From a virus: a stretch of DNA of 64,000 bases. Under the pieces are notes generated by a model. The model saw only the letters and a list, made by a program, of their open reading frames with translations. It was not told the origin of the DNA and searched no databases. This document shows positions 55,665 to 63,904 of this stretch, in pieces. Every line of letters starts with the position of its first letter. Position 1 is the stretch's first letter. The position numbers and the translations under genes were made by a program. The DNA lies in the IMG/VR virus record IMGVR_UViG_3300046170_000505; one strand, given 5' to 3'.

Positions 55665-55733
55665 GTAAGTCGTTGAATATCAAGCACTTGCGCGAGCCCG
55701 ACCCGCATAAAGCGTTGATTGGCAACAACTTAC
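55665..55733. repeat. twin-dyad element copy 1 (27+15+27 bp)
   Basis: GTAAGTcgTTGaatatCAAgcACTTGC-gcgagcccgacccgc-ATAAAGcgTTGattggCAAcaACTTAC. Confidence 0.9.
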
Positions 55734-55798
55734 AACAAAGTGCATTTTAATTAAACTTTTTTCTTTACAAGGTATGCGTATTGGTCTATATTGTATCT

Positions 55799-56185
55799 AT
55801 GACAGAGAGAAATCCAGGAAACAAAAAGTATAAGATTGACCACAAGAAAAAGGTCTTTGTATACAAGAACCTTCACAAAGATTGTTGGTCAGTCAAGCAA
55901 GACGGACTAGTCAAAGCACACACCGATGAGATTAATCTTTGGGACTGTGCATTTCAAGTAAATGCCAGGGGCAGACAAAAAGTTATTGATGAGCAACGCA
56001 AAAATGTTCACGCGGGCATCAATGGTTACATAGATGAACTTGATCTAGATTTACCTAATCCTGTGGAAGTAACTTACAACCCATACAAGTATGATTCTTT
56101 TGTTGACAAGGCAACCGAGTCTCCTATATACTCTATGGATAACGCAAAACTAACACACAACAAAGTAACAGCATATACAACATGA
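55799..56185 (+). CDS. conserved phage hypothetical protein
   Basis: VFVYKNLHK..F.V...GR..V...RKNVHAG..TYNPYK; leaderless start. Confidence 0.75.
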   Translation: MTERNPGNKKYKIDHKKKVFVYKNLHKDCWSVKQDGLVKAHTDEINLWDCAFQVNARGRQKVIDEQRKNVHAGINGYIDELDLDLPNPVEVTYNPYKYDSFVDKATESPIYSMDNAKLTHNKVTAYTT

Positions 56186-57957
56186 AATTATTAAAAGACA
56201 TTATAGATAATTGGGGTTTCGTAGACTCCAAGCAACTAAAAGAACTTGTGGAATATTTTCCATCAGTACCATTGGTTATTAAGTGGGGCATGAGAGAAAG
56301 AGAGATTTTCAAGGCTTGCGAAGTATCCAAACGCATAGAGAAAGTTGAGTCCGAATCAGACGACTATGTTCGTGAAGTTTTCATTAACGCAGGAAACTTA
56401 AAAAAGTTAAGAGAAGTATTGGGGGTAAAAGCGTGAAACAACTATTAGTTAAGATACCTATGTCACAATCTATTCAAGAAGTTATTGATTACATTTATTA
56501 TAGCGAGATGGAGGGTAGAGAGGACGAAACAGATTCGTGGTATACCACCTATAAAAGTTTATTAGAGTTAAAAGAAAAAGTATTAGATGAGGAGGATATG
56601 ACATGAGAAGTTGGGAAGAAAGAGACATAGTTGATATATTAAAAGAGCGACATGGCGAATTGAATAAAGCGTCAGTTGAGTTATCCGAAGGTGGCGATCA
56701 TGAAGGCTCAGATGCAATTGATGATGACCTTTTAATTATCGAAGATTTTTTAGAGAAACAATTCAGTGTCAAGTGGTACGGCACACAATTCCTCAGAATA
56801 CCAATCAAAGGATAAACATGAATAAATTAATGGAAGCACACAAAAGAAAACTATCGCCTGAGTCATCAATTGTCGCAGCAATCAATGGAATTGCAGATGA
56901 ACTATATGAGTTGAGAAAAGAGAACAGAGATCTTCAAGGCGAATTAAAAAACATAGCGGGGTCTCTCGATTATGTTAGTCAATACCTCTACGACATTAGT
57001 TGGGAGCTAAAGAAAAACAGAGAAAAAAGTATTGACAAAGAAGTTCAACTAAGTTAGATTTATATTATGACAGAAAAAACAATAGTAGCAGACACACCCG
57101 AAGCGATAGACCGATTCCGATTGGTAGCTCTTAAAGGAGCGTTAAAGATGGAGGTTCTTGGTATGACAAGACGAGGTCAATCAGTCTATTCAATCGTAAA
57201 ACAAGAGTTCGGATTTAAAGGCAACAAGGTATCCGTACTAAAACAACTAGAACAAAAAATTAAGGAGATTATTTAAAATGACTAAAGCACAAATCGAATC
57301 AAGAGTAGAAGGTTGGAATTGGAACATGAACATCTTTGAGATATACGATGAACTCAGAGACGGGCATACGGGAGAACAACAAGAGCAACTTTTAACTTTT
57401 GCTTATAATTATTTCAATAAAGATTCAGCTATCGCAGATTTAGCATGTCACTTCGGCATCACTATTGAAACAGACGAAGACTCACCAATCCCTTGCTAAG
57501 ATGAGAATAGAAGAAAGAATGATAGATTATGCCCAAAAGTGGTATGAAGTAAACGACCTAGAGACAGAGAAAAAGAACGGAAACGATCTTTATCTTCGAG
57601 TCAATGACAATGTATTTACTGAAGTCTCACACTGCGACATCAGACAAAAAGCCATGCTATGGTTAGAATCAGAATTAGAAGGAGTAAACAATTATTAAAA
57701 TGAACAATTACATAGAAGGAGTTTGCATCGGAAGTCCAATTGACTTACCCGAATACGATGAACAAGCAGAGCAATGGAAACTATGGTTTGAAGAGTCCGA
57801 GACCCCATACCACCCATACGACGAATTGCTTAGGGAGAACATTAATTTTCCTGATCTAATTTCTTATAGTTGTGACTCAGCCGAAGAGGCTTGCGAGCTT
57901 TACAACTATTACAACCAAAACCCTGTAACAAAGGACGCCAATGAAACTACTAACTAA
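56182..57957 (+). other. run of small hypothetical CDS
   Basis: Coupled ORFs; promoter TTGACA-17-TAGATT at 57032. Confidence 0.65.
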
Positions 57958-58171
57958 AATTCTTAACGCAGTTAAACCAAAGTACAAGCTTGTTTACCGT
58001 ACAGCTAACGGAGCAACTGCAATGTATACAATCACCAAGCCAAAACACAAAGGCGAGTTCGGCAACATGACCGAAGGCAAAGATGTTGTCGGCTTTAAAT
58101 CTTGGTGCTTTAATCGAAATGGATTTAGGTCTTTTCGTTATGATCGCATCGTAAGCCTAATAAAGGGATAA
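57941..58171 (+). CDS. stand-alone WYL-like domain protein
   Basis: WCFNRNGFRSFRYDRI; paralogue of 9483..9737. Confidence 0.6.
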   Translation: MKLLTKILNAVKPKYKLVYRTANGATAMYTITKPKHKGEFGNMTEGKDVVGFKSWCFNRNGFRSFRYDRIVSLIKG

Positions 58172-58340
58172 TTATTATGACACTACAACAAAAACTAAGG
58201 GCTCTCGGGCACCAATTGGCTGAGGCAGAACTATACGGGTTTAACATCCCTCAACCTCTAGACGCGAAGCATTACTACATGCTTAATAAGTTTTACAAAT
58301 TCAAAACTCGCAAATAGCAAATAACCTTTCCTCCACTACT

Positions 58341-58382
58341 AGCCCCGTCTTTGGTTGAGTTATGCCAAGGACGGGGTTTTTT
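58341..58382 (+). terminator. intrinsic terminator
   Basis: AGCCCCGTCTTTGG...CCAAGGACGGGGTT followed by a T run. Confidence 0.85.
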
Positions 58383-58451
58383 ATAAAGTACTGAGCATCA
58401 ACAACTTACGCGGGCCTGGGCCGCCTAAGCCCTTGATTACCAAGGACTTAG
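58383..58451. repeat. twin-dyad element copy 2 (between convergent genes, no promoter)
   Basis: ATAAAGtaCTGagcatCAAcaACTTAC-gcgggcctgggccgc-CTAAGCccTTGattacCAAggACTTAG. Confidence 0.88.
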
Positions 58452-58463
58452 GGGCTTTAAGGG

Positions 58464-62197: not shown

Positions 62198-62206
62198 ATT
62201 TATATA

Positions 62207-62311
62207 TGTCCCCGCGTTCTATTTGATCTGCAAATCAGAGGAGATGAGAGAAATTTAGATTGCAGTCTTAATTAAACTCTTGCAGGTTCGACTCCTGCCG
62301 CGACAGGGACA
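62207..62311 (+). ncRNA. tRNA-like structured element (not a canonical tRNA)
   Basis: Perfect T arm GCAGG-TTCGACT-CCTGC; closing stem TGTCCC-CGCG / CGCG-ACA-GGGACA; no CCA, no normal D arm. Confidence 0.55.
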
Positions 62312-62319
62312 CGCCTTTA

Positions 62320-62388
62320 GTAAGTCTTTGGTAACCAACGACTTACGCGGGCCTGGACCGCCTAAGTACTTGATAGTCAACAACTTAC
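62320..62388. repeat. twin-dyad element copy 6
   Basis: GTAAGTctTTGgtaacCAAcgACTTAC-gcgggcctggaccgc-CTAAGTacTTGatagtCAAcaACTTAC. Confidence 0.9.
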
Positions 62389-62495
62389 AAAAAAGTGCGT
62401 TTTTATTGTATTTTTTTCTTGCAACTTTTTATAAATTACCTTATTGTCTTATACATGATCAGGTTTATCTAAATTAACTTAAAAACATATATAAC

Positions 62496-63494
62496 ATGAA
62501 AGTACAAACTACAAACAAAACTAAAAAAGCATCAAAACTATCTTTTGCTAGAAAACTTGGCAGATCAAAAGCTAAGATGGCTACAAAGTTAAGTGAAAGC
62601 GAAAAGATTGAGACTCAAGACTTTTTTGAAGAAAACTTCGTGAAAGATGATTACGAGTATTTACCCGTAACCTTTACTAGTGAAGATTTACCTTTGATAG
62701 AATACATGAAGTCTTCAGAGATAAACTCCAATAACAGACAAAAGGTTGCGGATAATGTTGCAAGATTATTTCGTTGTCTTAAAGCGGGCATATGGTATCA
62801 AGAAAATCTAGATATCCATGTAGCTAAAGAAGGTCACTTAATGAATGGACAACACACATTAGAGGCTGTAGCTCAATTTTTCTTGGATGCAAACACACCA
62901 AGTGGTTCTGAAGTACCAATCGGATTTAAGATTGGTTGCAATGAAGATGCAATGCCTTATTTGGACACCCAAAAGAAAAGAACCCCTGAGCAAAACCTTA
63001 TGATCGAAAATGTTTTACTTAACCCTACTCAAAAAGCTATTGTTTTAATTGAGGGAAAAAGAGTTATACATGGTAAGCCTTTTGGTTATAGTGGTCAAGT
63101 CAATTACTTTGAGTACGAAGATATCATTGAAGACAATAAAAGCATATTAACGGATGTCTTTAAAGACAGAGTCTTATCTAGAGATTTCCCACATAAATCT
63201 ATAGGCTATGCTTTGTTCTTGCTTGCAAAAGAGAATCAAGAATTAGCAGAAGATATCATGAATGAGATTTGTGATTCTCATAGCATGGAAAACAGGGGAA
63301 AGTCTTTCGCTGATCCAAAACAACTCGAAGAGCATTTGTTAGTCGAAATGTACAGAAGAGAAAAAAGGGATAAAATAGACACAATGAGTAGCAAGACTAA
63401 CAGAGATTGCTACCGCCAAGAAGAATTCTTTCCTATTGCGGTTGATTGGTTAGTCTCAAACCATAACATTGACAGAAAGGTTTTCAAAGCATGA
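62496..63494 (+). CDS. ParB/Srx-like N-terminal domain phage protein
   Basis: NNRQ...V......G.W; G.LMNGQHTL.A; LD..K.R. Confidence 0.6.
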   Translation: MKVQTTNKTKKASKLSFARKLGRSKAKMATKLSESEKIETQDFFEENFVKDDYEYLPVTFTSEDLPLIEYMKSSEINSNNRQKVADNVARLFRCLKAGIWYQENLDIHVAKEGHLMNGQHTLEAVAQFFLDANTPSGSEVPIGFKIGCNEDAMPYLDTQKKRTPEQNLMIENVLLNPTQKAIVLIEGKRVIHGKPFGYSGQVNYFEYEDIIEDNKSILTDVFKDRVLSRDFPHKSIGYALFLLAKENQELAEDIMNEICDSHSMENRGKSFADPKQLEEHLLVEMYRREKRDKIDTMSSKTNRDCYRQEEFFPIAVDWLVSNHNIDRKVFKA

Positions 63495-63826
63495 GCCACT
63501 ACATAAAGAAAGCAATTAACTCGTATCAAGAGCTAGCGTTCTACATTGGTAAGACTAGGTTATGCCCAATAACCCAAAGGGCTAATCCAAAGAATCAATC
63601 AGTATCTGACTTTGCAAAAAATGGTCAAATGTATTGGAAAACTATAATGCACATTGATGACCATAAATTGCATCCTGAGTTCGGGGAGTCATTCTTAATT
63701 AATTGTTTTAGAGATAAACTTAGCCACTTAGTCTTACTCAACAAAGACATACCTCACGCTATGGCATTAGTTTATGACAAAAAATCAGAGTCGCTCATAG
63801 ATAAGCTTTTTAAAGAGTTATCTTAA
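63491..63826 (+). CDS. hypothetical protein
   Basis: Coupled ORF. Confidence 0.6.
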   Translation: MSHYIKKAINSYQELAFYIGKTRLCPITQRANPKNQSVSDFAKNGQMYWKTIMHIDDHKLHPEFGESFLINCFRDKLSHLVLLNKDIPHAMALVYDKKSESLIDKLFKELS

Positions 63827-63835
63827 CTTAATCGC

Positions 63836-63904
63836 GTAAGTCATTGATAGTCAGTGGCTTACGCGGGCCAGGGCCGCGTAAGTACTTGCGGGTCAACAAC
63901 TTAC
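63836..63904. repeat. twin-dyad element copy 7
   Basis: GTAAGTcaTTGatagtCAGtgGCTTAC-gcgggccagggccgc-GTAAGTacTTGcgggtCAAcaACTTAC. Confidence 0.9.

Follow-up and report, generated by a model that had tools for sequence, protein, structure and literature searches.

Repeated DNA elements that sit beside promoters, or that carry sites for architectural proteins, are known from several systems. Integration host factor (IHF) sites lie upstream of phage early promoters, with lambda pL and Mu Pe as the precedents, and TF1 of Bacillus phage SPO1 is a phage protein of the HU/IHF family that binds sites at clustered early promoters. ParB-family proteins act at palindromes near many promoters in the KorB-OB system of plasmid RK2 and at the dispersed centromere sites of phage N15, while the RIP/RIB bacterial interspersed mosaic elements (BIMEs) of E. 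coli and the Correia elements of Neisseria are repeated elements with IHF sites. More generally, IHF sites are known to occur within transposable elements, miniature inverted-repeat transposable elements (MITEs) and extragenic repeats (PMC5896051). T4-like phages possess promoter-early stem-loop (PeSL) cassettes (Arbiol et al. 2010, PMC2839356; Comeau et al. 2014, PMC4122927), and homologous exchange between the PeSL repeats has been demonstrated (PMC2839356). Here we describe a 69-bp twin-dyad element, consisting of two 27-bp palindromes (dyads) around a GC-rich spacer, that recurs through the early region of an uncultured large marine phage, ahead of almost all of its small early gene units (IMG/VR record IMGVR_UViG_3300046170_000505; the 64,000-nucleotide stretch analysed is referred to as the window). 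The elements are real, non-random and members of a widespread, undescribed family. As to what they do, we give roughly even chances to the reading that each is a twin site for an architectural protein of the host IHF/HU kind, which would lie upstream of early promoters and double as a recombination seam.

The window was scanned with the dyad pattern GTAAGTnnTTGn5CAAnnACTTAC, allowing up to 3 mismatches, with shuffled sequences as the control. Thirteen matches were found, every one within 55665-63904, against a mean of 0.06 and a maximum of 1 in shuffled sequence; a 14th dyad, in the element at 58383, has 4 mismatches to the pattern. This confirms the seven elements that an initial annotation of the window had placed at 55665, 58383, 58869, 60335, 61684, 62320 and 63836, along with the invariant geometry it had described: in all seven, dyad 2 starts exactly 42 bp after dyad 1, with a spacer of 15 nt. 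Its spacer consensus, GCGGGCCWGGnCCGC, holds for five of the seven copies and fails for the divergent spacers of 55665 and 58869. Three copies, as it had also claimed, stand directly 3' of an intrinsic terminator; the hairpins with T runs precede the elements at 55665 (hairpin at 55595-55644, +), 58383 (58341-58378) and 60335 (60292-60313).

The repeated unit exceeds these 69 bp, as alignments between copies extend up to 162 nt. A complete cassette unit of about 160 bp runs from a gene end or terminator through the twin dyad and an A/T-rich linker to a sigma70-type -35/-10 pair and an ATG. In six of the seven window copies, the linker is 30 nt long and is followed by the -35 box, 17 nt, the -10 box, 6-7 nt and the ATG, and an independent promoter consensus scan also recovers four of these six promoters. 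Their plus-strand -35 boxes are imperfect (TTTACA four times, TTGCAA and TTGCGT once each). Since the ATGs (55799, 59003, 60469, 61818, 62455 and 63970) lie only 6-7 nt past the -10 box, leaderless transcripts are predicted. Gene calls on near-identical public contigs do begin at the predicted ATGs 55799, 60469, 61818 and 63970; of the two other promoters, one leads into a 39-aa open reading frame (ORF; 59003) and the other into an ORF of five codons (62455). The array also continues past the window: contig L001, which shares 6.8 kb with the window at 99.9% identity and reaches 9.5 kb further, adds eight copies and brings the total to 15. Seven of the eight serve minus-strand units and one lies at a convergent gene junction. 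The minus-strand units have the mirror-image layout; four of their copies have linkers of 27-30 nt, one has a 40-nt linker and two have longer ones. The same leaderless layout is seen in the distant relatives L042 and L127.

Homologues of a 332-aa ParB/Srx-like protein encoded in the array led us to relatives at 86, 58 and ~50% identity, all of which have dyads before the same type of promoter. The dyads start 42-43 bp apart in the nearer relatives; in the others the distance is 46-48 bp, and the spacers are GC-rich, 19-21 nt long and unlike the window's in sequence. A scan of IMG/VR with the 25-bp core of the dyad yielded at least 118 loci, of which at least 62 have three or more dyads. Among the latter, the spacing is 41, 42, 46-53 or 58 bp between contigs and constant within a contig, where the spacers have diverged in sequence and kept their length. 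A DNA pattern based on the window's spacer has no match in IMG/VR, because the spacer sequence is not conserved. The initial annotation had taken the 42-bp offset to mean four helical turns and a single DNA face, and had named the loss of this spacing in homologous phages as grounds for refutation; as a general rule the proposal fails, given that homologous phages range from 41 to 58 bp. Nevertheless, the spacing is constrained inside each genome. Four complete genomes (148-206 kb) have their dyads only in one or two regions of ~3-15 kb, and a reversed control pattern gives 0-1 matches. Orthologous cassettes (gp82-like and ParB-like) retain the upstream element in distant relatives, and the dyad core is nearly invariant among phages whose core proteins are just 30-45% identical. 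No cultured relative was found by DNA search; protein searches returned just distant rIIB matches, and none for the ParB-like protein.

To ask what these palindromes are conserved for, covariation was assessed over 626 dyads (313 twin elements, drawn from the phage and its relatives). Watson-Crick complementarity between mirrored positions equals the value expected from independent columns (observed versus expected, 0.40 and 0.45 for pair 7-21, 0.40 and 0.35 for pair 8-20, 0.57 and 0.59 for pair 5-23). Between dyad 1 and dyad 2, complementarity is likewise no higher than independent columns give, and changes in the arms are uncompensated. Such independent conservation of the half-sites fits a dimeric protein on duplex DNA and not a selected hairpin. 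Single-strand folds of the seven window 69-mers do beat their shuffles (z from -1.6 to -5.2), although the best predicted fold varies by copy among two hairpins, a central hairpin and one long hairpin, and the window's central palindrome is not retained in relatives. The single-stranded switch between two-hairpin and central-hairpin forms that the initial annotation had suggested is not borne out by these folds. The spacer is 76% G+C, with weak self-complementarity (mean z -0.74) and no T run, and none of the Rfam families matches the twin-dyad element.

The position of the dyads relative to the promoter was examined under a strict rule, namely a sigma70-type promoter with a leaderless ATG no more than 125 nt from the twin, across 361 unique twins. 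The linker between dyad and -35 box peaks at 5, 15 and 26 nt for a spacing of 48 bp, at 15-19, 27-30 and 40-42 nt for 42 bp, and at 7, 18-19, 28-29 and 39-40 nt for 52-53 bp. For a period of 10.5 bp, the Rayleigh R is 0.88 (spacing 48), 0.73 (42) and 0.63 (52-53), and 0.39 for spacings of 49-51 bp. Steps of one helical turn recur in three spacing classes, and the mean orientation of the two dyads to the -35 box appears to be about equal across those three. Such helical phasing argues for an interaction on the DNA between the occupant of the dyads and RNA polymerase. With the phasing and the independently conserved half-sites in hand, a dimeric protein on duplex DNA, which the initial annotation had also favoured, is the best reading of the element.

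The nature of this protein is suggested by the core itself. In the 25-bp core, YAA-N4-TTGAT-W-ATCAA-N4-TTR, each strand reads as the IHF consensus WATCAANNNNTTR (Friedman 1988, quoted by PMC5896051), with one centre common to the two copies and in exact register. In a 73.5-kb composite, 16 of the 30 exact consensus matches fall in the elements, which account for 1.4% of the DNA. Of 60 half-sites, 16 match this consensus exactly in register and 42 do so with no more than one mismatch. At the positions W, A and T that the search pattern leaves free, the expected base is present in 76%, 45% and 67% of 1,252 half-sites. This agreement is a resemblance and not a test. A literature search with the core sequence surfaced only the palindrome TTTGATTATCAAA of FabT, a MarR-family protein, which is alike in the centre and not in the arms.

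From the anatomy, distribution, lack of covariation and phasing, we infer that each 69-bp element would act as a duplex protein-binding module and as the upstream part of a reiterated early promoter cassette, with each 25-27-bp dyad a symmetric site for a dimeric protein. Given a palindromic IHF consensus, the most likely binder would be a host DNABII architectural protein of the IHF/HU kind, and a symmetric site would suit a homodimeric member of that family. A host factor fits because early promoters must work before phage proteins exist, whereas a host protein would already be on hand. With two such sites and a stiff GC-rich spacer between them, the DNA ahead of the promoter would take on a defined shape, which could raise initiation in a manner that depends on the face of the helix. 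The twin sites could also insulate one transcription unit from the next, a separation that would explain the two promoterless copies at convergent gene ends.

Several observations weigh against a host IHF/HU-kind protein or against the generality of its action. Across phages the dyad spacing covers 4.0-5.5 helical turns, so that no single two-bend geometry suits all, and its rigidity within a genome despite diverged spacers would be better suited to a co-evolving phage protein. A promoter is recognised by the strict rule for only 139 of the 361 unique twins, and the phasing statistics treat copies as independent though they share ancestry, which inflates the p-values. Strong, full-consensus TTGACA promoters without a twin dyad also occur in the cassette region (56103, 57032 and 59361, +), for instance directly before the DUF932 gene; two promoter classes thus coexist there. 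At the level of the site, conserved dyad bases (G, A and C before TTA) lie outside the E. coli IHF consensus, and the dyads are symmetric with the consensus on both halves, whereas E. coli IHF sites are asymmetric, with the consensus on one half and an A-tract on the other. IHF proper is known mainly from Proteobacteria, whereas the dyad-rich metagenome-assembled genomes (MAGs) described below belong to WOR-3 and Bacteroidota. Most sampled Bacteroidota genomes are without the motif, so that a universal host factor is not established.

The second part of the architectural-site reading, that the elements serve as recombination seams, was examined by comparing gene order between relatives. The initial annotation had likened the layout to PeSL cassettes and proposed a search for cassette shuffling; gene order is indeed permuted, and the breaks in homology fall in the elements. 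Of 29 homology ends between relatives and the window, 10 lie no more than 10 bp from an element, where 2.4 are expected. Relative to the window, L011 has the GP88 and ParB-like units in exchanged positions, and in L013 the gp82-like unit is found at a different place. In L012, a minus-strand unit is inserted between two copies of element 61684, with homology overlapping within the element; the entire 62320 element-plus-promoter module is missing, and the order of minus-strand units also differs. The homology ends are scattered through the element and share no single fixed nucleotide, which fits homologous exchange in a 160-bp repeat better than site-specific exchange. The elements would be crossover points because ~160 bp of near-identical sequence recurs 15 times, and at these points gene units could be inserted, lost and reordered. 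Apparent strain differences in cassette content among L001-L006 were rejected as gene-calling artefacts on identical DNA, save for one 197-bp insertion in L005 (L005:6251-6447, at window ~64340); it carries a 65-aa ORF in a 98%-identical strain and is intergenic, not at an element.

Among the alternatives, the one that survives best, although we still consider it unlikely, is that the elements serve as operators. Their dedicated dimeric regulator, either a phage-encoded protein or one brought in by the virion, would bridge the dyads as two dimers or as a tetramer and switch all cassette promoters together, which generalises the proposal of the initial annotation. The symmetric 11-5-11 sites with independently conserved half-sites, their phasing to the promoter and the imperfect -35 boxes of the plus-strand element promoters would all be accommodated, and a spacing that is rigid in each genome and differs among genomes is what a co-evolving bridging protein would be expected to produce. 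What speaks against such a regulator is that no conserved candidate for it emerged. The ParB-like protein (62496-63494, +), a binder proposed by the initial annotation, is dismissed on its distribution, since it has no homologue in any of the four complete element-bearing relatives or at the other element-bearing IMG/VR loci. This 332-aa protein has an invariant NGQHT motif and an AlphaFold2 model with a pLDDT of 85, and its homologues are known solely from uncultured contigs. It has no Pfam match, and its fold matches are weak (best E = 0.014) and mostly to ParB, Noc, KorB or Srx (sulfiredoxin); judging from motif, model and fold matches, it probably carries a ParB/Srx-type N-domain. The L5-gp82-like protein is present in just three of the four complete relatives.

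A basic phrog_7595/DUF5754-like domain was also rejected as the binder. It is widespread in unrelated aquatic viruses, Phage C48C1 has it (77% identity) with zero dyads, and it was not found in the dyad-bearing bacterial genomes. In L001, the domain lies in a very basic 268-aa protein (L001:11979-12785, ~5.2 kb past the window end) whose gene lies just beyond the array. With 62-78% identity it is the best-conserved segment among five distant phages, and it occurs also in pelagiphages, roseophages, Flavobacterium and Methylophilales phages and spindle-shaped viruses of Nitrosopumilaceae. A sigma factor, PhoH and a clamp loader are among the ORFs that the four complete relatives have in common, and no obvious operator-type regulator is found among the ten small shared proteins annotated (of 35 shared ORFs). 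Finally, a phage regulator sits poorly with a core that is nearly invariant while the proteins are 30-45% identical, and with its occurrence in bacterial repeats that have no phage genes nearby.

These bacterial occurrences were surveyed in a set of species-representative genomes, in which the twin pattern has 90 loci against an estimated ~6 expected by chance; many of the single matches are probably chance. MAGs with real twins come from Planctomycetota, Pirellulales, Gemmatimonas (where the twin lies between parA and parB), Terriglobia and Entotheonella, and a Bacteroidetes chromosome has one twin adjoining an integrase and a tRNA. In the two PVC MAGs (Planctomycetota and Pirellulales), a 140-155-bp unit is built around the twin and looks like a MITE, by virtue of its terminal inverted repeats and its presence at two loci; such units (L179:2590-2760 and L183:1-125; L148 and L201) each occur at two or more loci. 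Single dyads, counted with no more than 1 mismatch, number 213 in a 1.8-Mb WOR-3 MAG (G005) and 505 in a 6.8-Mb Microscillaceae MAG (G006), against 0-1 for the control. These dyads are intergenic, often with several in one long ORF-free gap. Those of WOR-3 are located inside repeat units of ~200 nt that also contain GGGGGGC-TTCG-GCCCCCC hairpins. Loci L134, L204, L194 and L171 are grouped with these two genomes. Only one more dyad-rich genome was found among 200 other Bacteroidota genomes; at 2 of 201 sampled in all, a Bacteroidota-wide host factor or regulon is not supported, and lineage-specific expansions are indicated in its place.

Such a distribution raises a further idea that we hold to be a long shot, namely that the 25-bp palindrome could be the site of a DNA-binding or mobilising protein that travels widely and is distinct both from classical IHF and from every regulator found here. 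That site would be common to a large clade of uncultured aquatic phages of 125-205 kb, where it always forms rigid twins before leaderless early genes, to MITE-like elements of Planctomycetota, and to expansions resembling repetitive extragenic palindromic (REP) sequences in WOR-3 and Cytophagales. If so, the palindrome would represent a mobile regulatory and shuffling element of a new class that crosses phyla.

It seems improbable to us that the phage copies are themselves selfish MITE- or REP-like repeats with little phage function, lodged in intergenic gaps of a plastic region. This would agree with the hundreds of copies clustered in long ORF-free gaps of two MAGs, with the twins inside Planctomycetota and Pirellulales units bounded by terminal inverted repeats, and with the one module that is present in the window and absent from L012. 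However, neither terminal inverted repeats nor target duplications are seen in the copies of the window and L001, and selfish repeats would account poorly for fixed, phased distances to promoters, for orthologous cassettes that keep their element in distant relatives, and for the confinement of copies to one or two small regions of the complete genomes.

Still harder to sustain is a role as sites for specific recombination, either as tyrosine-recombinase cores or as a folded twin of the integron attC type, with the array as an integron-like cassette store. The 11-5-11 layout is like that of recombinase cores, a folded dyad 1/dyad 2 with a spacer stem would resemble the R box, unpaired centre, L box and variable stem of such a site, cassette order is permuted in relatives with breaks at the elements, and one Bacteroidetes twin lies beside an integrase and a tRNA. 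A recombinase is nonetheless missing: no Phage_integrase tyrosine recombinase (PF00589) is found in the four complete relatives, while control genomes all match, and neither three complete relatives nor the WOR-3 MAG with its 213 copies have the Y1/RAYT transposase (PF01797). In addition, the 5-bp centres differ among copies, dyad 1 and dyad 2 do not covary, homology ends are spread instead of falling at one nucleotide, the cassettes have their own promoters and lie on both strands, and promoter phasing would have no role. Least probable of all are RNA or single-stranded DNA structures (terminators, processing sites, hairpin promoters or possibly the two-hairpin/central-hairpin switch), for which, besides the fold stabilities, one may cite a spacer stem GACCCC-tetraloop-GGGGTC with varying loops in relative L113 and copies downstream of terminator-less genes that would be transcribed, and against which stand the uncompensated arm changes, the inconsistent folds, the modest self-complementarity of an unconserved spacer, the lack of a T run after the element and of an Rfam match, and an arm sequence that is itself conserved over distant genomes, beyond what pairing requires. 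A sigma54 enhancer was ruled out on inspection by eye, the linker being without GG/GC -24/-12.

The individual cassettes of the window are arranged as follows. Element 1 (55665-55733, +; dyads 55665-55691 and 55707-55733) comes after its terminator and serves the L5-gp82-like gene; the promoter TTTACA-17-TATATT (55764-55801, +) has the leaderless ATG of a 128-aa gene 6 nt past its -10 box. Element 2 (58383-58451) is without a promoter and lies between convergent gene ends, right after its terminator. Element 3 (58869-58937) has divergent promoters on both sides, TTGACA-17-TAATAT on the minus strand (58843-58815) and TTTACA-17-TACTAT on the plus strand (58968-58996). The remaining four are all on the plus strand: element 4 (60335-60403), also after a terminator, with its promoter at 60434-60462 and leaderless ATG at 60469; element 5 (61684-61752), with promoter 61783-61811 and leaderless ATG 61818; element 6 (62320-62388), with promoter 62419-62447 and the leaderless five-codon mini-ORF 62455-62472 ahead of the ParB/Srx-like gene; and element 7 (63836-63904), with promoter 63935-63963 and leaderless ATG 63970.

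Other features of the window lie outside the array. In the ORF-free stretch just 5' of the first element sits a full-length manA RNA (Rfam RF01745; 55161-55370, +), scoring 81 bits against a gathering score of 55.2. Also just 5' of the array is an rIIA-like (HATPase_c_3) and rIIB-like gene pair (48446-52202, +), which is kept in the four complete relatives. A 698-aa protein (2759-4855, +) combines PSCyt2 (DUF1549) with PSD1 (DUF1553), domains characteristic of Planctomycetota and Verrucomicrobiota; it may hint at the host.

Should the architectural-site reading be true, an uncultured clade of large aquatic phages would place its early, fast-evolving genes under a single common control element, which a DNA-bending protein would read and which would double as a seam for swaps of gene units. 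The element provides a sequence tag for the early regions and relatives of these phages in metagenomes, and a testable route to a host factor. That bacteria share the palindrome, in hundreds of copies and in MITE-like units, points to a common protein partner worth identifying.

Known systems resemble the twin dyads to different degrees. Integron attC sites are alike in that small gene units are separated by imperfect palindromes, with a length that is constant per genome and differs among genomes, conserved outer arms and a variable, often GC-rich centre; however, no integrase was found here, the cassettes bear promoters and lie on both strands, and the folded form is unsupported. REP/BIME sequences are likewise high-copy extragenic palindromes (213 and 505 in the two MAGs; 15, clustered, in the phage), but the Y1 transposase of the BIME-RAYT kind is absent from the WOR-3 MAG and the three complete phage relatives examined for it. 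With KorB-OB and N15, the array shares many copies of one palindrome by promoters and a ParB/Srx-like protein encoded inside it, yet the ParB-like gene and the dyads do not co-occur (in none of the four complete relatives and at none of the other loci). TF1 offers a DNABII bending protein on clustered early promoter units in a host-takeover region; as no phage-encoded DNABII (HU/IHF) protein reaches the Pfam threshold in the four complete relatives, the protein here would have to be host-derived, unlike TF1.

Closer still are the IHF sites. The half-site fits WATCAANNNNTTR in register, and the promoter core follows the site at a phased distance. High-copy extragenic repeats and MITEs also contain embedded IHF sites (PMC5896051), and Coxiella QMITE1 is among the repeated IHF-site elements to which the twin dyads may be likened. 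The twin dyads differ in being perfectly symmetric double-consensus sites that are always paired and conserve extra bases, and in that the dyad-rich bacteria are not Proteobacteria. PeSL cassettes, for their part, provide the nearest match in organisation. Both are short composite motifs, reiterated in a plastic region of small genes of unassigned function; both combine a sigma70-type early promoter with an A/T-rich stretch and, upstream, a G+C-rich segment; and in both the ends of insertions, losses and replacements between relatives fall in the motifs. The upstream part of a PeSL, however, is a single terminating GGGG...CCCC stem-loop, whereas here there are two sequence-conserved 27-bp palindromes around a GC-rich spacer, with separate terminators before some copies. 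Furthermore, conservation of the dyad sequence reaches very distant phages and also bacteria, the genes are leaderless, and this phage is without a close cultured relative. If the reading as an architectural-protein site and recombination seam holds, the twin-dyad array would be a second, independent example, outside T4-like phages, of the PeSL principle that a promoter-linked repeat drives modular shuffling.

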